Shown here: piece after piece, positions 1 through 8,017 of the stretch
Layout of the letters: every line of letters begins with the position of its first letter
Numbering within the stretch: the first letter of the stretch is position 1
Assembly (NCBI RefSeq): GCF_009931435.1
Contig: NZ_CP043414.1
Strand: one strand, 5' to 3'
Length of the DNA: 64,000 nucleotides
From: Escherichia coli
GTDB lineage: Bacteria; Pseudomonadota; Gammaproteobacteria; Enterobacterales; Enterobacteriaceae
Program-made: the position numbers and the translations under genes
The notes under the pieces: model-generated
What the model was told of the DNA's origin: nothing
What the model saw: the letters and a program-made list of their open reading frames with translations, nothing else
The model's database searches: none

Positions 1-2887
1 CAGAAGGCTGTACCCACCAGTTCACCGGTAATTCACTCACACTGTGTTTTGCACTGTCACGCAGGGGGGCACGGGATGAGGTGCCTTCGCCAAAGGTCAT
101 ATCGTTGTGGCTGCCCAGACGGAAACCGGCACGCACATGTTGTGCACTGCCATGCCCGAACTTCACATAACCGGCGTTGTCCTTACCGTCATCCAGGGAA
201 AGTCCCTGCCAGGTATACTGCAGTTGTGGCTCCAGCATCAGGTTGTCAGTGATACTGAAGGGCAGACCGGTTTCCAGTGAGCCCAGCCAGCCCCAGCCCC
301 GGGCGCGGAAGTCGTTATTGTCCGATGACGCTTTCATGCTGTGGCGGGTTCCCTGTGCCACAATGTCAGCCCACAGGCCGGAGGACGTGTGTGTCAGATT
401 CAGGTATCCGCCCAGGCTGCCGGCATCATCCCGGACCGTGCCGGCACGGGAGCCGTCATCATCCTTAACATCAACGGAAGAATGGCCAGCAGCACCATAT
501 ACCCCCGCGGTCACAGACATACCGGCAACCTCTGTTCTCATCAGGTCACCCTCCAGACGGACGAATCCATAGCTGCCGCTGCTTTCCGGCGTGGCCCCAC
601 GGGCAATACCGCCATTGTTATCGTGACCGAGATGACCGCCCTGAATGCTGAGACGGACGCTGTTGTTTTCACCATTTACACCGGTCTGATGGCTGCGGGA
701 GCCTGCCACAATCCGGTCATAGTCCATTGCCTGTGTCAGCATGGAGGCATACAGGGGGACTTCTGCACGATAAGCATTTTCACTGCGCAGATACCAGCTC
801 TCACCACTGTCCCGGTTGAGGGAGTAGTTAAAGGCACCGGCCTGCAGCCTGTTCCCCTGGACAAAGGCCCCTTCCTCCGTGGTGGCACCGTTAATGGCTT
901 CCACCACCTGAATACCCTTACCGCTGGTCGCCAGCCCCGACGCACTGTTGCCGGCGTTCACCAGGTTCAGGATGGTTTTTCCGGTTGCCCTGCCGCCGTC
1001 AATGACCAGTCTGTCAGCATTGTTCTGTGCCATATCCGGGCGTACACGCAGGCTGATGGTGCCATTCTGTCCGTTCAGGTTTTTCACTTTCAGGGTTGCC
1101 GGTACGAACTTCCCTGTGCGGGTGGAGGTGAAATGAATCTGTCCGGCATGGCTGAGGTCATCCACCACCGACTGCACCGTGGCGTTATCGGGGATATTCC
1201 AGGTGGCACCGGAGGCGAGAGTGACATTCGTGGGGTCAATGGCACCGTTCAGCACAGTGCTGCCGGTCAGCTTCAGGGCTGTACCGCGCTGAGCAATGAC
1301 ATCCGTGGTGACGGTACTGTCGTTCAGCGTCAGCGTGCCTTCATTCAGGTTGACGGCTTTCTGGGTGAGTGTGGTGTTGCTGACAGTGAGTGTGCCACTT
1401 CCTGATTTTTCCACGCTGCCGTTACCGGTGAGAGAGCCTCCCTGCAGGAGTGCATCGCCTTCACGGATGGTCAGGGTATCGTTGTTCACCGTCTTCCCGG
1501 AAAGGGTAAGTATGGCGCCGTTATTCAGCGTGGTGGTGCCCGCCAGTGTGCCGCCCCTGGCGGTGAACAGTCCGCCATTTACCGTGGTATCCGTGGCCGT
1601 ATCACCGGCGTTCAGCGTGAATGAACTGCCTTTTTCCAGCATCAGGGCATCCGCCTGACCGCCTCCGATACTGAATGCCTTTCCGTCGCTCCGGGTACCA
1701 CTGACAGCGGCACCGGAATCGGCCAGCAGTACACCGCCATTTCCCATGGATACGGTGGTGGCGGTACCACCGTTGCGGACATCCAGCGTTCCGCCATCAT
1801 CCACGCGGGTATTAGTGGCTGTGTGTCCGGTCAGCACATCCAGGCGTCCGCCATTTTCCAGTACGACATTATCAGCTTTACCCTCCACAACCGAGAATGC
1901 TCCAAGGCGGTTTATGCCGGTAACGGTTGCAGCCGTACTGGTAACCAGTGCGCCGCCCTGCTTCAGGGTGACATTCGTGGCTGTACCACCGGCGTCCACC
2001 TGCAGTCTGCCCTTCTGATTAACGGTGGTATTCCCGGCCACACCCCCGTTTTTGACAATCTGCCAGCCGTCACTGTTCACAACAGTGTCAGACGCTGTAC
2101 CGCCGTTGTGCACATACTGGTATCCCCCATTCAGCGTGGTATCCAGTGCGTGACCATGTACAGTCTGGTCGCCGCCGGCATAAACCACAGTGGTATTTGC
2201 CGTTCCTTCAGTTCTCACAATCTGGCGACCGTTTTTATTGATGGTTGTGCGTACGGCATCCCCGCGAACAAACTGCCCGGTATCACCGTTTTCTGCATCC
2301 GGTCCCCCTTCCGCCCCGGTATTAACAACGGTATCCGTTGCCACTGTACCGGGCTTGACGACCTGCCAGCCCTTATCATTAATGACGGTTCCTGTGGCTA
2401 TCGCCCCCTCATGCATCCACTGTTCGCCACCATTCAGCGTGGTGTTCACTGCCCGTCCCTGAAGGCTCTGTCCGCCTCCGGCACTGATAACCGTGTCTGA
2501 GACACTTCCACCGGGGTTCACTCTCTGAAGACCACCACTGGTGACAGTCGTTTTGTTGGCTGTTCCGCCATCCTGTACCCATTGCCCGCCGGTATTGGCC
2601 TCGTTATCCGGCCCATACTCCAGCCCGGTACTGATGGTCATTCCGTTGGTCGTACCGAAGACAATCTGGTTGTCATGATTTTCCAGTGTTCCGCCGTTCA
2701 CGGTTTCACCTGCCTGTACAATACTGTCAGCAGCCAGGGCCGGGACTGACGTGACAGCAGCAAGAGACAGAGCAACCGCCACACCGGCGCCTTTTCCCCG
2801 TGAGCGGGCCAGTTCGGAGGCCACCACCAGGGTGCCCGTAATGTGATTCCATACCAGCCTGTAGCTGGTGTTCAGATGTCGTTTCAT
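1..2887 (-). CDS. flu: Antigen 43 (self-associating autotransporter adhesin), 3' end truncated by window edge (about 75 codons missing)
   Basis: Reverse complement from 2887 reads MKRHLNTSYRLVWNH... with long signal peptide and passenger repeats; reverse complement of window start reads ...RAPLRDSAKHSVSELPVNWWVQPS, matching the Ag43 translocator region; the long plus-strand ORFs here are antisense artefacts. Confidence 0.9.
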   Translation of the reverse strand, partial: MKRHLNTSYRLVWNHITGTLVVASELARSRGKGAGVAVALSLAAVTSVPALAADSIVQAGETVNGGTLENHDNQIVFGTTNGMTISTGLEYGPDNEANTGGQWVQDGGTANKTTVTSGGLQRVNPGGSVSDTVISAGGGQSLQGRAVNTTLNGGEQWMHEGAIATGTVINDKGWQVVKPGTVATDTVVNTGAEGGPDAENGDTGQFVRGDAVRTTINKNGRQIVRTEGTANTTVVYAGGDQTVHGHALDTTLNGGYQYVHNGGTASDTVVNSDGWQIVKNGGVAGNTTVNQKGRLQVDAGGTATNVTLKQGGALVTSTAATVTGINRLGAFSVVEGKADNVVLENGGRLDVLTGHTATNTRVDDGGTLDVRNGGTATTVSMGNGGVLLADSGAAVSGTRSDGKAFSIGGGQADALMLEKGSSFTLNAGDTATDTTVNGGLFTARGGTLAGTTTLNNGAILTLSGKTVNNDTLTIREGDALLQGGSLTGNGSVEKSGSGTLTVSNTTLTQKAVNLNEGTLTLNDSTVTTDVIAQRGTALKLTGSTVLNGAIDPTNVTLASGATWNIPDNATVQSVVDDLSHAGQIHFTSTRTGKFVPATLKVKNLNGQNGTISLRVRPDMAQNNADRLVIDGGRATGKTILNLVNAGNSASGLATSGKGIQVVEAINGATTEEGAFVQGNRLQAGAFNYSLNRDSGESWYLRSENAYRAEVPLYASMLTQAMDYDRIVAGSRSHQTGVNGENNSVRLSIQGGHLGHDNNGGIARGATPESSGSYGFVRLEGDLMRTEVAGMSVTAGVYGAAGHSSVDVKDDDGSRAGTVRDDAGSLGGYLNLTHTSSGLWADIVAQGTRHSMKASSDNNDFRARGWGWLGSLETGLPFSITDNLMLEPQLQYTWQGLSLDDGKDNAGYVKFGHGSAQHVRAGFRLGSHNDMTFGEGTSSRAPLRDSAKHSVSELPVNWWVQPS

Positions 2888-3059
2888 CAGCTTTTCCTTA
2901 GATTGAGGGTGAATAAAAAAGCCGGTACCCACAAACGTGGATACCGGCAGGTAAAGGGTTACAGTGCCGGAGGTCCGGCTGTGGGAGTTTCTGAATTGTG
3001 GTTCTGTTGTTCCCTGAATGTCTTTCTGTACGTATCTGTGCATGTTACTGACAAAGGTT

Positions 3060-3120
3060 ATTATTAGCTTATCGATCGATATAAACGATCGATAAAATAG
3101 ATATCGATCGTTTTATTCTA
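3060..3120 (-). promoter_or_regulatory. flu (agn43) phase-variation control region with three clustered GATC (Dam) sites
   Basis: GATC at 3074-3077, 3087-3090 and 3106-3109 within an AT-rich tract about 190-220 nt upstream of the flu start; matches the known Dam/OxyR switch architecture. Confidence 0.7.
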
Positions 3121-3214
3121 TTATTGAGCTATTGCACGGACAAGAGAGACAGTAACGAAAACAGTGCTTTTGTGAGCAGACTCAGAGTCAGGGAGGGCAT
3201 CAGTCACGACAGGT

Positions 3215-4087
3215 TCAGAAGAAAATCCAGTTCCATACCGCACGGGCAACAGAGACCACCGTGTCACGAACAGCGCGCAGGGCCGTACGGACAACAGAGG
3301 CAACACAGACGCTCTCCGCTGTGTCAAATATCCGGTCCACCGCACCGGTAAACTGTTCACGGGCCTGAGAGCGGACAGATTCCGTGCGCAGCTCGTCCTG
3401 CAGTCGGGTCATCAGGGGACTGGCGGCATGGTCGGGAAGCGCTGTCATGAGCGCACTGACCAGCGTATCCAGTTCCCAGCCGGTGCGGGCCGATACGGCC
3501 ACAACCGGATGTACGGGCCGGAACAGACGGAATACCGCCTCCGTTTTTTCGCGAATATTCTGTGCCTGTGCAGGAGAAGGCTGAATACCGGCCATATCCC
3601 ATTCATGGCAGGGCTCCGTTTTGTCGGCCTGCGTCACCACAAACAGTACCCGCTGATGTCCCCGGTGCAGGATGTGTCGCCAGAAATACTCATCCACAGA
3701 CAGGGCACGGTCATCGGCTTTAATCAGCCACAGTACCAGGTCAAGTTCAGGCAGAATGTCACGGTACAGGGCCTCATACTCTGCATCCCTGTCCCGGCTC
3801 TCGCCCACCCCGGGCAGGTCAGTGATAACCATGCTGTGACCGTGGCCACTCAGACGGAAGCGCCGTACTTCCCGGGTGCCGGCGTGAACATCACTGACCG
3901 GGGTGACCTCCCCCTGAAACAGTGCATTACAGAGTGAGGATTTACCGGCCCCGCTTTTACCCATAATGCCAATCACGGGTTCGTGACGGGTGAGTTTGCG
4001 CAGATGTTCCAGGATGTGACGGGAAAGCGAGTAAGGCAGGGAGGAGAGCGGTTTTTCAATTGCCTCAATGGCATCAGACGGATTCAT
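3215..4087 (-). CDS. yeeP: YeeP/YfjP-family prophage GTPase (50S ribosome-binding GTPase-like), apparently full length
   Basis: Translation from internal ATG at 4087 (MNPSDAIEAIEKPL...) with P-loop GIMGKSGAGKSS and DLPG motif; ORF-track start at 4126 is probably an N-terminal over-extension. Confidence 0.8.
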   Translation of the reverse strand: MNPSDAIEAIEKPLSSLPYSLSRHILEHLRKLTRHEPVIGIMGKSGAGKSSLCNALFQGEVTPVSDVHAGTREVRRFRLSGHGHSMVITDLPGVGESRDRDAEYEALYRDILPELDLVLWLIKADDRALSVDEYFWRHILHRGHQRVLFVVTQADKTEPCHEWDMAGIQPSPAQAQNIREKTEAVFRLFRPVHPVVAVSARTGWELDTLVSALMTALPDHAASPLMTRLQDELRTESVRSQAREQFTGAVDRIFDTAESVCVASVVRTALRAVRDTVVSVARAVWNWIFF

Positions 4088-5315
4088 ACATGTATTCCCG
4101 GTGAAAAAAGACAAAACCCCGCGCACCGGAAAGGTGGCGGGGGATTCACGGAGATAATATCTGTCTGAAATTGTTTTTAATCGATGGGATTGTTGCGTAT
4201 TAACATGAAGGAGATCAGGACTTATCCGTTACTGGGTGATCTCCTTCCATGAAAATACGCCGTTATTGTTAAACAGCAGGCTGATTTCTCCGTAAAGGGG
4301 AAAATATTTATCGGCTGCATGATTATCAGGTGTGTCTGTGTTTACTGCTGTGAGTATTTTTCAGTGTATTGTGGGGGAGATGTCAGTGGGAGATATTAAA
4401 TTTACATTTATAATTATCTTACTTCTTCTGTGTGTTTTTTATAAGAGTGCACACGTAATGATATCTGTTGATACCATGTGGTTAAGTGTTTCCCTTCCTG
4501 GTCATGCGTAATGATTAAATGCTTTTGTGACACCATTCTTCCGGTCTGAATATTTATCCCGTTCTTTTTTATTTGTGCAGTGATACTGTCGGAAGAGAAT
4601 TCAGTAATGTGAGGTGTCCTGGTCAGGATAATATCTGCTGAGATATTATTAGTTGAGTGTGTTTTTACTGAGCAAAAGCTGGCTTTTAATTCCTGTACTG
4701 AAACGCTGTTGCTCGTCCGGGGTTAACTGAAACTGGATGATGATGTAAAATGAAGGCTGTTTTTGTGTTTGTCGAAGAAGTGTTATTTTAATCCATTCTC
4801 ATCATTGGCTGGCGATTATACAGAAGTATTTGAAGAAAAAATGGTGCATTTTATCTGCGTCAGCAGGGAGGAAGTATTTTATTGATGTATCAGTATTAAA
4901 TGGTTTTTGTTATTTAGAAATATGTCATCCTGTCCATAGAATATTGTACTCAGCATTCAGTGCAGGAACTGTAGTCTTCTTTATTTTATTCTTCTTCAGG
5001 AGGGGGGATTCCTGAAGGCGTTATTCCCGGTGTTCTGTTTATGATTCATCCCGGCAGGAAACCGGTATCTGCAATACCCGGGATGATGCTTTTTGTTCGT
5101 ACGTGGTTGTGTAAAATTTGAATAGTGGATGTGCTCTGAAGGGAAGGAGGGGACACACAGATTCATTTTGTCTTTCTTCAGCAGCAAAACACACTGTGGT
5201 TATTATTTAACCATTAAATCAACAAAAATTTTTACCTCATATTGATTTGACTGCTATTTTTGCTATTAATAGCCAGAATTGCAGTACTTTTATATCTGTG
5301 TGTAGTGAGGTTACT

Positions 5316-6800
5316 ATGTCATTCGGTCAGCCTTGTGATGAGTTTCCCCTGAGTTCGCTGCCTCCACTCATTCGTGATGCCGTTATTGAAGCTCAGCAAA
5401 TTACGCAGGCTCCCCTTGGGCTTGTGGCAGCGTCTGCCCTGGGCGCTGTTTCACTTGTCTGCCAGAATCTGATTGATGTCTGCAGACTGAATACACTGCG
5501 GGGGCCGGTCTCTCTTTTTTTCCTGACGCTTGCCGAGTCCGGAGAACGAAAAATCGCAGTGGACAAATTATTAATGAAGCCCCTGTATCAGCAGGAGATG
5601 CAGTTATATTCCAGATACAAAAGTGAACTGGCTGTCTGGAAAAACAAGGAAGAGCTTTTAAAGGCTCAGAAAAAAGCATTGTTGTCAAAACTGAATAAAG
5701 AACTCCGCAAAGGAGCGGATGAGTCAGAAACCCTCAGACAACTGGAAGTACTTCAGAAAAACAGTGCGGAAGAACCTGTGAGGTATAAATTCATTTTTAA
5801 TGATGCCACGACTGCGGCAATTAAGAATCAGCTTTGTGGTAAATGGCGTTCAGTGGGTATTATGTCAGATGAAGCCGGTATTATATTTGATGGATATACC
5901 CTGTCTGAGTTGCCATTTATTAACAAAATGTGGGATGGCTCTGTATTGTCTGTGGACAGAAAGAATGAACCCGAACAGATGATTGAAAATGCCAGAATGA
6001 CGTTATCCCTCATGGTGCAACCCGGTCTTTTTGACCGATATATGGAGCGAAAAGGTTCTGTTGCCAGGGACAGTGGTTTTCTTGCCCGTTGTCTTATCAG
6101 TAAACCTGCAACCACGCAGGGGAAACGCTTTATTAACGGAGCTGTGATTCCGGGAGGATCATTAACGGCATTTCATGAACGATTAATGGAACTGGCCAGA
6201 GGCAGTATTGAAAAATCCAGTGAGGATGAACGGTATTGTCTGCATTTTTCGCCTGAAGCGCAAAAAATATTTATTGAGCACTATAATGTTCTGGAGCAGG
6301 ATTTATCTCCCTCCGGTCCGTTAAGTGCGTTTCGGGGACATGTTTCAAAAAAAACAGAAAACATTGCAAGAATTGCAGCGTTATTTCAGTATTTCAGCTA
6401 TGGTGAAGGGAAAATCTCTGCCGATATCATGACGTCTGCTGTCGTAATAAGTTCGTGGTACACAGATGAATATAAAAAATTATTTGCGTTACCTGATGAA
6501 TCTGAACTGCAGCAGAAGGACGCCGAGGAGCTGTTCGACTGGCTCATTGAGGAGTGCCGCGGAGAATGCCCACCCCGTGTCAGGAAAAATTATATTCTCC
6601 AGTGTGGCCCGGGTCGGTTCAGAAACAGGAAAAAACTGAACGCATTGCTGAACATTCTTGAATCTCAGTTCAGGCTTTCTGTCGTGCCGGAAGGAAAAAC
6701 CATGTATGTTCTGCTTCCCCAGATAGCCAGTTTAAAGTTGTCTGATGTCTCTGGTATTTTTACCTCGGGTTATCACTACAATAAGCTGAGAGCGAAGTAA
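5316..6800 (+). CDS. Large island protein, tentatively DUF3987 / YfjI-like (prophage replication-associated protein of unknown function)
   Basis: 494 aa from ATG 5316 preceded by GTGAGG Shine-Dalgarno; motifs recalled from the DUF3987 family (MSDEAG, GSVLSVDRK, LMVQPG, GFLARCL); no P-loop visible; family assignment from memory only. Confidence 0.55.
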   Translation: MSFGQPCDEFPLSSLPPLIRDAVIEAQQITQAPLGLVAASALGAVSLVCQNLIDVCRLNTLRGPVSLFFLTLAESGERKIAVDKLLMKPLYQQEMQLYSRYKSELAVWKNKEELLKAQKKALLSKLNKELRKGADESETLRQLEVLQKNSAEEPVRYKFIFNDATTAAIKNQLCGKWRSVGIMSDEAGIIFDGYTLSELPFINKMWDGSVLSVDRKNEPEQMIENARMTLSLMVQPGLFDRYMERKGSVARDSGFLARCLISKPATTQGKRFINGAVIPGGSLTAFHERLMELARGSIEKSSEDERYCLHFSPEAQKIFIEHYNVLEQDLSPSGPLSAFRGHVSKKTENIARIAALFQYFSYGEGKISADIMTSAVVISSWYTDEYKKLFALPDESELQQKDAEELFDWLIEECRGECPPRVRKNYILQCGPGRFRNRKKLNALLNILESQFRLSVVPEGKTMYVLLPQIASLKLSDVSGIFTSGYHYNKLRAK

Positions 6801-6859
6801 CCGGTGAGCAGTTTTTCTCCATTATGCTTCAGACTTAGATGATTGATTATTATGGGGAT

Positions 6860-6899
6860 TTCATCACCGATATTCAGATGTATGAATATCGGTGATGAA
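6860..6899. repeat. Perfect inverted repeat (17 bp arms, 6 nt loop) between convergent genes; possible bidirectional terminator or protein-binding palindrome
   Basis: ttcatcaccgatattca / gatgta / tgaatatcggtgatgaa read directly; no U-tract on either side. Confidence 0.5.
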
Positions 6900-7121
6900 C
6901 TAAAGCTCAGGAGTTGCGTGGTGGTGATGAATCAACAGGCATATAACTGATACCCGCCGGTCAGAAGTTCCAGCCTGCGACTTTCCTGTCTGCGTGCCCG
7001 CAGTCCGGCGTTCAGGTGCAGCGTGTGACAGAACGCACGGAGAGCGAAACGGCAGGCAGACAGGCTGTTCAGTCAGCCCTGGCACCCTGCCCGGATACCA
7101 GCTTCCCTGAAACAACTGGCA

Positions 7122-7730
7122 TCAGGTGCGCTTATCGTCAACCGTTGTGCGGTATGCCAGGAGCACGTACTGATCCATCAGATCCGTCAGTGCTGCGCTC
7201 TGCTTCTGACGGTTGATGATCCATTCCTCCAGCTCTTTTTCTGATTTCCGTTTCAGATTCTCCGTCCAGTCGTCAAGGCAGTTTCCGGTCATTAAATCAA
7301 GCCAGCAAAGCCAGACCAGTTTGAGGCGCAACTCCGTGCCACCAAACTGACGGAAGAGGCTGATCAGTTTATTTGCCAGCGAACGCTGCCTCAGACGTTC
7401 ACATTCAGACAGGAGAATGCCTTCCAGCATCGGATGATGAACCAGCAGATGTTCACTGGTGCATAAATTCACTATCAGATCATCATCCAGGGGCGGCGTG
7501 GTCCGTTTGTCCGGACCATAAATCAGCCGGTGCAGACTCTGGGGTACGATGGCAATCTCCGGTTTTTCACCATTGAATGACACCCACCCGGGCGTCAGAT
7601 TATGGAAGTAGTAGATATTCGGATGACACACGCCCCAGGATACGGCGTGCCGGGTGAAGCCGGTCAGCCATTTCTGGTAGCTTTCGTGGAGCAGCTCGTA
7701 ACGGGTCTGATACTGTGGTTTCATTTTCAT
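7122..7730 (-). CDS. Hypothetical protein (202 aa) downstream of alpA on the same strand
   Basis: ORF 7122..7871; internal ATG at 7730 (MKMKPQYQ...) has a GAGGAA Shine-Dalgarno 6 nt upstream; no family recognised. Confidence 0.5.
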   Translation of the reverse strand: MKMKPQYQTRYELLHESYQKWLTGFTRHAVSWGVCHPNIYYFHNLTPGWVSFNGEKPEIAIVPQSLHRLIYGPDKRTTPPLDDDLIVNLCTSEHLLVHHPMLEGILLSECERLRQRSLANKLISLFRQFGGTELRLKLVWLCWLDLMTGNCLDDWTENLKRKSEKELEEWIINRQKQSAALTDLMDQYVLLAYRTTVDDKRT

Positions 7731-7810
7731 ATTCCTCACGGGAGATAACAGGCAGCAGAACGCCGCCGGCAGGCCGGAGACTGCGTCTGCTGCAGATGAA
7801 CGGTTAAGAA

Positions 7811-8017
7811 TTACGGACGGGACTGTGCAATACGCGCCTGCAGCCAGGCTTCCACTTCGCTTTTCAGCCATCGGGAGCTGCGGCCCATTTTGATGGGCGC
7901 AGGAAAGTCACCATCCTTGATGAGTTTGTAAAACCACTTATCGGTCAGGCCGGTCAGTTGAGTGATAAATGCCATGTCGACCATCTGGTCATCCATCAGT
8001 GAAACTGGGGTGATCAT
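7811..8017 (-). CDS. alpA: AlpA-family prophage transcriptional regulator (MerR-like HTH)
   Basis: MITPVSLMDDQMVDMAFITQLTGLTDKWFYKLIKDG...RWLKSEVEAWL pattern typical of the AlpA family; ATG 8017 preceded by GAGGAA. Confidence 0.75.
   Translation of the reverse strand: MITPVSLMDDQMVDMAFITQLTGLTDKWFYKLIKDGDFPAPIKMGRSSRWLKSEVEAWLQARIAQSRP

Follow-up and report, generated by a model that had tools for sequence, protein, structure and literature searches.

We examined a 64,000-nucleotide (nt) stretch of Escherichia coli DNA (contig NZ_CP043414.1), called the window here, and within it a tract of 1228 base pairs (bp) with 38% GC (positions 4088-5315) that belongs to a genomic island of the CP4-44/CP4-57 type. 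The tract lies between the divergent ATG codons of two genes: a yeeP-like GTPase gene of 290 amino acids (aa) on the minus strand (3215-4087, Pfam MMR_HSR1, ATG at 4087), and a YfjI/DUF3987 gene of 494 aa on the plus strand, beginning with the ATG at 5316. Leftward on the minus strand, the GTPase gene is followed by the agn43 regulatory region (3000-3111, minus strand; an Rfam IS102/IsrC match of 125 bits, clipped at the search boundary) and then by agn43. An AlpA-family gene (7811-8017, minus strand) and a 200-aa hypothetical gene converge on yfjI from the other side. The identical locus in strain 504239, annotated by the Prokaryotic Genome Annotation Pipeline (PGAP), confirms this layout and the GTPase start codon, and has Hha-family and YfjJ-like genes beyond the AlpA-family and hypothetical genes. 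A preliminary description, made from the letters of the window, had placed a gene-free stretch at 4130-5315; the stretch is gene-free, but its actual left limit is 4088, set by the GTPase start codon. We conclude that the tract is probably a divergent non-coding intergenic region of the island, with sequence-specific function at its two ends only.

Of the 5426 complete E. coli genomes, 1857 hold full-length copies of the tract, near-identical or related, and no annotated feature fell on the copies among the 70 records listed. K-12 carries a truncated CP4-44 without the tract, so K-12 chromatin immunoprecipitation data are not applicable to it. We compared five lineages of the locus: the window type, type B at ~88% identity (L002 and also L004), one at ~82% (L003, L120), and a more distant one (L121), all with the gene order Ag43, GTPase, ~1.2 kb of intergenic DNA, yfjI, hypothetical, AlpA-like. 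A metagenome scan yielded 65 complete tract copies, 51 of them unique. Tract length was 1181-1347 bp in 64 of these; the single outlier (L082) measured 2669 bp with a 406-aa stop-free stretch, and its extra length is probably an insertion sequence (IS). Between lineages the tract diverged by 0.12-0.32 with an additional 11-25 insertion/deletion (indel) events, whereas fourfold sites of yeeP and yfjI differed by 0.06-0.22 in the matching comparisons. Viewed as a whole, the tract shows no purifying selection on its sequence. GC content (0.37-0.39) and length were nevertheless maintained across lineages despite the sequence drift. Within the window the GC content of the tract is 0.35-0.40, compared with 0.58-0.60 in yeeP and ~0.58 when yeeP and agn43 are taken together, in agreement with the strong AT-richness described earlier.

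The GTPase end of the tract (4088-4185) holds a compact cassette on the minus strand, in the order TTAAAA, 15 nt, TATTAT, 11 nt, GC hairpin, U-run, 16 nt, ATG. The first elements form a sigma-70 promoter-like motif (4154-4180) with TTAAAA as the -35 hexamer (4175-4180), the 15-nt spacer ACAATTTCAGACAGA, and TATTAT as the -10 hexamer (4154-4159); the motif doubles as a 25-bp imperfect palindrome, TTCAGACAGATATTATCTCCGTGAA. Behind it stands an intrinsic-terminator-like element (4104-4142), composed of a GC stem-loop at 4117-4142 with a folding energy of -19.5 kcal/mol and the U-run TTTTGTCTTTTTT at 4104-4116, which was flagged by a terminator scan. The 16 nt between the U-run and the GTPase ATG (4088-4103) are an untranslated stretch with a presumed ribosome-binding site, as read from the sequence. 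A transcript of the cassette would be ~40-45 nt long and essentially the terminator hairpin, where an Hfq-dependent sRNA gene would be expected to have a conserved body of ~50 nt or more between promoter and terminator.

Conservation of the cassette takes two forms. The ~30-nt promoter-like motif is nearly invariant among 24 unique variants and distant paralogues from E. coli ATCC 8739, Klebsiella plasmids and IMG/VR contigs. The hairpin stem varies: that of ATCC 8739 and Klebsiella has an A:U pair turned into U:A by a compensated double change, and the IMG/VR contigs, K-12 yfjP and K-12 ykfA have a different stem altogether. A hairpin and U-run, followed by the start codon, were present in every paralogue examined. 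The element combines a GC stem-loop with a U-run on the transcribed strand, as intrinsic terminators do, and its structure is kept despite sequence change. We infer that the motif is the promoter of the GTPase gene and that the hairpin and U-run attenuate or stabilise its transcript. The scans of viral contigs yielded few loci. In the SpLE1 island of O157 Sakai, a second copy of the GTPase-type motif, TTGAAA-15-TATTAT with TTTCAGATATA in its spacer (L124 11661-11688), precedes the DUF932 gene ECs_1401 at a distance of ~260 bp, with no hairpin directly behind it.

Homology between the window and other GTPase contexts (ATCC 8739, MS1494, O157 Sakai SpLE1, and plasmids of E. coli, Salmonella and Klebsiella) spans only the first 89-98 bp upstream of the gene and ends at ~4185. 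Past this point the other islands carry a 384-aa open reading frame (ORF), an Rpn pseudogene, IS debris, rnlAB or perR. The proposal that a variable cargo slot adjoins the GTPase gene is therefore borne out, and the strain comparison suggested with it showed that the slot holds genes in other islands, such as the 384-aa ORF in MS1494. Judged by these contexts, the cassette is an apparently self-contained unit that travels with the GTPase gene. The tract had also been considered a regulatory leader for yeeP or the DUF3987 gene. It does lie upstream of both, but no long yeeP leader is needed, because the promoter-like motif is within 100 bp of the yeeP ATG.

Related promoters are on record in K-12. 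In the promoter tables of a study of genomic systematic evolution of ligands by exponential enrichment (SELEX) with RpoD holoenzyme (Shimada et al. 2014, PMC3946193), constitutive promoters of the form TTGAAA-15-TATCAT are assigned to the ykfA and yfjP spacers, and these hexamers are the window's cassette motif in its K-12 sequence. The promoters of yfjP (CP4-57) and ykfA (CP4-6) resemble that of the window in the motif, the 15-nt spacer, the TTCAGA(C/T)AGA core and the position ahead of a GTPase gene, and they too are followed by a hairpin, a U-run, a ribosome-binding site and an ATG. They differ from the window, where the -35 is TTAAAA, the -10 is TATTAT and the hairpin lies only ~5 nt past the predicted start; the RNA polymerase binding in vitro tabulated in PMC3946193 is that of the K-12 spacers. 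Those promoter tables make no mention of a downstream hairpin and U-run, and no entry for yfjP or ykfA was found in the Term-seq supplements searched.

The middle of the tract (~4186-4985, ~800 bp) includes a 66-nt hairpin and is otherwise AT-rich, fast-evolving non-coding filler (4261-4985), identified as such by its divergence, its indels and the lack of a coding signal. Other lineages have lineage-specific inserts in the filler. Slippage-prone repeats peculiar to single lineages were seen in the spacers: a (CCCTGCG) unit repeated 4-5 times at L003 2885-2912 but only once or twice in L120, and a poly-T of 32 nt at L121 4165-4196. Conserved patches occur at 4265-4365 and 5040-5100. The latter, ...TCCCGGCAGGAAACC...CTGCAATACCC...GATGCTTTTTG, belongs to the yfjI end and is conserved in all lineages; an alignment of the five lineages and a set of 50 unique copies both show it as the best-conserved block of the interior, and it has no conserved fold.

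These patches are one of several features that could point to a non-coding RNA encoded in the interior, whether a small RNA (sRNA), a long leader or an antisense transcript regulating yeeP/agn43 or yfjI. Others are the two stable hairpins of the tract, some promoter-like and terminator-like matches, and a strong strand asymmetry at 4200-5100, where the plus strand is rich in G and T (GC skew +0.2 to +0.3, AT skew about -0.2). The asymmetry could instead reflect a replication- or transcription-linked mutation bias. A scan of the tract against Rfam, as had been suggested for this locus, returned no family at gathering score, and the best hits at E <= 10 were at chance level. Promoter-like sites were not enriched (6, compared with 3.5 +/- 2.0 in shuffles), substitutions in the interior accumulate no more slowly than at synonymous sites of its neighbours, taken as the neutral rate, indels are frequent there, and the main hairpin is dispensable. 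The Hfq crosslinking table for O157 Sakai, a strain with the cassette and without the filler, shows no EcOnc sRNA peak at the cassette. We consider a non-coding RNA gene in the interior, which had been among the initial proposals, quite unlikely. The Esr41/EcOnc sRNAs of O157 SpLE1 were considered as candidates and rejected: Sakai lacks the tract, and Esr41 (1,422,407) is ~20 kb from the SpLE1 GTPase gene (1,443,047).

A second alternative is that the tract represents one or more old cargo genes between yfjI and the GTPase gene, decayed beyond recognition. Such an origin would suit the neutral-like evolution of the tract and the presence of genes in the corresponding slot of other islands. It would also suit the orientation of yfjI, which runs opposite to its direction in the CP4-57 series alpA-yfjI-...-yfjP, so that former downstream cargo could sit here. 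Coding remnants were sought in several ways. The longest ORF with a start codon in the tract is 63 aa, consistent with the earlier statement that no ORF with a credible start exceeds ~60 codons; reading without stops continues for 102 aa at most, and that stretch has no early start. Ten stop-free fragments gave zero Pfam matches, the substitutions in four lineage comparisons had no 3-base periodicity, and no longer ORF was conserved in any lineage. A 127-aa stop-free stretch compared with 5.8 billion proteins matched only spurious partial 'hypothetical' calls in E. coli from the same locus. All ORF fragments of 23 related loci, of K-12 CP4-57 and of the window outside the tract were compared with the tract, and none had protein-level similarity to it; the comparison gave DNA-level matches to the cassette and to the palindrome described below, and to these only. 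The tract therefore showed neither similarity to a protein family nor a frame-like pattern of substitution. Decayed coding sequence in homologous loci had been named among the findings that would refute the initial proposals, and no remnant of it was found there; we regard it as a quite unlikely account of the tract. Two specific candidates were discarded. The 384-aa ORF that fills the slot in MS1494 had no similarity to the tract when compared as its possible ancestor. A 26-codon ORF at 5041-5121 had 9 amino-acid-changing substitutions and 1 silent substitution between lineages, counted by hand on the lineage alignment, and its L121 copy is truncated.

At the yfjI end (~4990-5315), the last ~120 bp of the tract are conserved in all lineages and contain a 36-bp palindrome, ACTGCTATTTTTGCTATTAATAGCCAGAATTGCAGT (5250-5285), built from four GCTAT units, two direct and two inverted, and placed 31 nt before the yfjI ATG. 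A YfjI search with one genome per species gave 16 loci at ~50% protein identity, and the palindrome was present in nearly all of them, 50-67 nt upstream of the gene and mostly just after alpA. The genera that bear it include Dickeya, Pectobacterium, Citrobacter, Siccibacter, Kluyvera and Erwinia; it is also found in K-12 CP4-57 (L130 4908-4938) and in IMG/VR contigs. Its inner arms covary between loci, reading TTCCGC/GCGGAA in some and TTTTGC/GCAAAA in others. We read the palindrome as a candidate operator of yfjI. It possibly overlaps a putative yfjI promoter, TTGATT-16-TGcTATTAA, which the promoter scan left unflagged. No description of the GCTAT palindrome was found in the literature searched. 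Both yfjI and its palindrome (region 5316-8017) are inverted with respect to K-12 CP4-57, in which alpA and then yfjI run in one direction; the inverted arrangement is common to all five lineages.

A further inverted repeat, CTTCAGGAG...TTCCTGAAG, lies at 4993-5017. This short hairpin, already noted in the preliminary description, folds at -13.2 kcal/mol (z = -3.2). Each of the five lineages keeps a hairpin or inverted repeat here, with energies from -7.4 to -15.8 kcal/mol and changes that are mostly one-sided or wobble. Inverted repeats of the form TTCAG-N(9-17)-CTGAA occur at window positions 4995-5016 and 6618-6640 and at L001 3374-3392 (the identical locus), a weak enrichment in the island (3, compared with 0.2-0.5 expected). 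The outer arms of the palindrome in the GTPase promoter are similar to them, and half-sites are common to the promoter and this second hairpin.

The juxtaposition of an ORF-free, AT-rich stretch with a DUF3987 gene, the conservation of a repeat-bearing palindrome with yfjI across genera, and a YagK/YfjJ (Rep-like) gene 4.4 kb away raised the idea of a replication or transfer origin of the island, used by the helicase-like YfjI or by the nearby YfjJ/Gp2-like initiator. In CP4-57-type islands, however, the palindrome occupies a 128-bp gap between alpA and yfjI with no long AT-rich tract, the interior of the tract is not conserved, and no iteron family was seen in it (DnaA boxes were not searched for). 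An origin at this site is very unlikely.

The hairpin in the middle of the tract had attracted attention for the GATC in each of its arms. It proved to be larger than described: a 66-nt imperfect palindrome (4195-4260) with an outer stem GCGTATT/AATACGC around the inner stem, GATC at 4213 and 4238, and ATTGTT on both flanks. Its predicted folding energy is -28 to -30 kcal/mol (z = -5.3 on the plus strand and -6.0 on the minus strand, relative to shuffles). Because GATC is self-complementary, the inverted repeat mirrors it, and its presence in both arms counts as one event. Among the 65 metagenomic copies, 37 had both GATC sites, 22 had the hairpin without GATC, and 6 had no hairpin; it is missing as a clean 73-bp gap in L003, L120 and L121, and in type B (L002) the hairpin has lost its two GATC sites, with two positions of the stem no longer paired. 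The GATC sites are therefore not conserved.

The same repeat, with sharp GCGTATT...AATACGC ends, occurs in unrelated contexts: one copy follows cdtC on pVir68, another lies in a PerC-type island and a third sits beside an IS3 remnant on a plasmid, with a half copy after a cah gene. It is found at 1-6 places per genome. A sharp-ended unit that recurs in unrelated places and is polymorphic for presence and absence behaves as a dispersed repeat. The ATTGTT flanks are a property of the window copy; four other contexts had no consistent target-site duplication, and no transposase could be linked to the unit. As a discrete, sharp-ended palindrome, present or absent in unrelated island and plasmid intergenic sites, it resembles the repetitive extragenic palindromic (REP) sequences and bacterial interspersed mosaic elements (BIME), the enterobacterial repetitive intergenic consensus (ERIC) sequences, and repeats like miniature inverted-repeat (MITE) or palindrome-associated (PATE) transposable elements, from which its low copy number and inconsistent target-site duplication set it apart. 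The 66-nt sequence is not known to be REP or ERIC, no repeat library having been searched. Type B carries a related insert, a 71-nt hairpin GCGTACTTGC...GGAATACGC (L002 3376-3446, also in L004) at the equivalent of window position ~4506, which shares its ends with the 66-nt hairpin, differs in its interior, and has a GATC in each arm. At a cah-adjacent locus (L034) the 66-nt and 71-nt units are combined in a chimera. On this distribution, the 66-nt hairpin is a low-copy dispersed palindromic repeat that apparently landed in a permissive spacer and is incidental to it.

The neighbouring agn43 (flu) gene has a three-GATC switch of the OxyR/Dam type. This switch is part of the same island at a distance of 1 kb, along with the IsrC/IS102 match, and likewise has closely spaced GATC sites upstream of a gene. 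From 1 to 7171, across the 5' part of agn43, yeeP, the tract and yfjI, the window is strongly depleted in GATC, with 6 sites, compared with ~23 expected from trinucleotide content, and none in 1-3073: three are at 3074, 3087 and 3106 in the agn43 regulatory region, where they lie within the OxyR operator, two are in the hairpin and one is in yfjI. The agn43 sites fall inside the region matched by the IS102 model, whereas those of the hairpin are lineage-specific and outside the conserved promoter cassette. A second Dam-methylation-sensitive switch in the hairpin, controlling yeeP or agn43, would take its appeal from the two sites, which lie 25 bp apart within a folded element at 100-150 bp from the yeeP start, on its upstream side, from the way they stand out in GATC-poor surroundings, and from the two GATC sites of the type-B insert, but it is highly improbable given that the paired sites are one mirrored event in a unit that recurs elsewhere, that they are often absent, that the hairpin is upstream of the GTPase promoter cassette and not inside it, so that no conserved GATC falls within a promoter regulator site, and that the tract is not enriched in GATC (2 sites, compared with 4.7 expected).

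We return to the interpretation of the tract as drifting intergenic DNA with a functional element at each end. At the GTPase end, a sigma-70 promoter whose 15-bp spacer is unusually conserved would be followed, a few nt into the transcript, by a hairpin and U-run ahead of the ribosome-binding site. Most transcripts may stop at this hairpin, or the 5' hairpin may stabilise the message; either way, expression of the GTPase would be gated there. At the yfjI end, the 36-bp four-repeat palindrome would be the operator core of a control region. The ~800 bp between them would be filler that tolerates substitutions, indels and inserts of small palindromic repeats, the GATC hairpin being one such insert. 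Any role of the filler would depend on its composition and length and not on its sequence; it may, for example, be silenced DNA bound by H-NS or a buffer that separates the two divergent promoters. The 38% GC of the tract, compared with ~58% in yeeP and agn43, is the AT-richness expected of xenogeneic silenced DNA, and the tract shares with H-NS-silenced DNA and 'promoter islands' a location in an acquired island that encodes an Hha-family protein, as well as conserved composition and length with a drifting sequence; it differs from 'promoter islands' in that promoter-like sites are not significantly enriched. Silencing by H-NS, or insulation of the promoters, is plausible from these properties. 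In this interpretation, the initial view of a non-coding region upstream of both genes and in a variable slot is retained, and the importance of the GATC sites, the RNA gene and the long yeeP leader are not.

Several observations weigh against this interpretation. The tract has been kept at ~1.2 kb even though lineages differ by up to 30%, which is hard to fit with purely neutral filler and is the one aspect that such filler leaves not fully explained; that length was kept despite the deletion bias of bacteria suggests that there may be a role dependent on composition or length, or an element that escaped detection. The greater divergence of the filler than of its flanks could also be due to recombination, if this homogenises the genes. 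Promoter use and terminator efficiency are inferred for this locus from its sequence. For a sigma-70 promoter, 15 nt is a short spacer, and the -35 of the window, TTAAAA, is a weaker one than the TTGAAA of K-12. A simple promoter scan flagged neither of the proposed promoters; the 15-nt spacing of the GTPase one is outside the range of the tool.

The cassette invites a further, more speculative reading. Its layout resembles that of antitermination systems such as lambda PR'-tR' (Q) and Pseudomonas aeruginosa PalpB-tB (AlpA, PMC9371919), in which a constitutive-looking promoter with a conserved element between -35 and -10 is followed by a close intrinsic terminator, before the genes begin. The resemblance is one of layout; no antiterminator was identified in the island. 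The AlpA-family protein of the island is a helix-turn-helix protein of 68 aa, in contrast to the longer P. aeruginosa AlpA, whose DNA-contacting helix-turn-helix residues are 128-142 (PMC9371919). The GGGACG binding element of P. aeruginosa AlpA was tried as a match and rejected: it is absent, the sequence here being different, and the Pseudomonas protein is longer than the 68-aa one. It is possible, though we think it unlikely, that the promoter-terminator cassette before the island GTPase genes (yeeP, yfjP, ykfA and the homologues on Klebsiella plasmids) is a dedicated switch, in which transcription from a constitutive promoter would stop within ~45 nt unless an island or phage factor acting at the invariant spacer/palindrome allowed read-through, with the yfjI palindrome as a second operator of the same circuit. 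If so, the switch would gate a GTPase-led island operon and, here, possibly the agn43 side too.

The module to which the tract belongs (GTPase, Ag43, antirestriction and toxin-antitoxin genes) is present in about one third of sequenced E. coli, pathogens included, and its regulation is poorly known. The region is ordinary in kind, and no description was found of the two small conserved cis-elements in it. Evidence that most of the tract is drifting filler guards against reading too much into it, be it a gene for an RNA or a switch set by methylation. The putative GTPase promoter with its immediate terminator, which extends from E. coli to Klebsiella plasmids, and the yfjI palindrome, which extends across Enterobacterales, provide experimental handles. 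Neither is surprising in kind, and both could help explain how genes are controlled in CP4-type islands.

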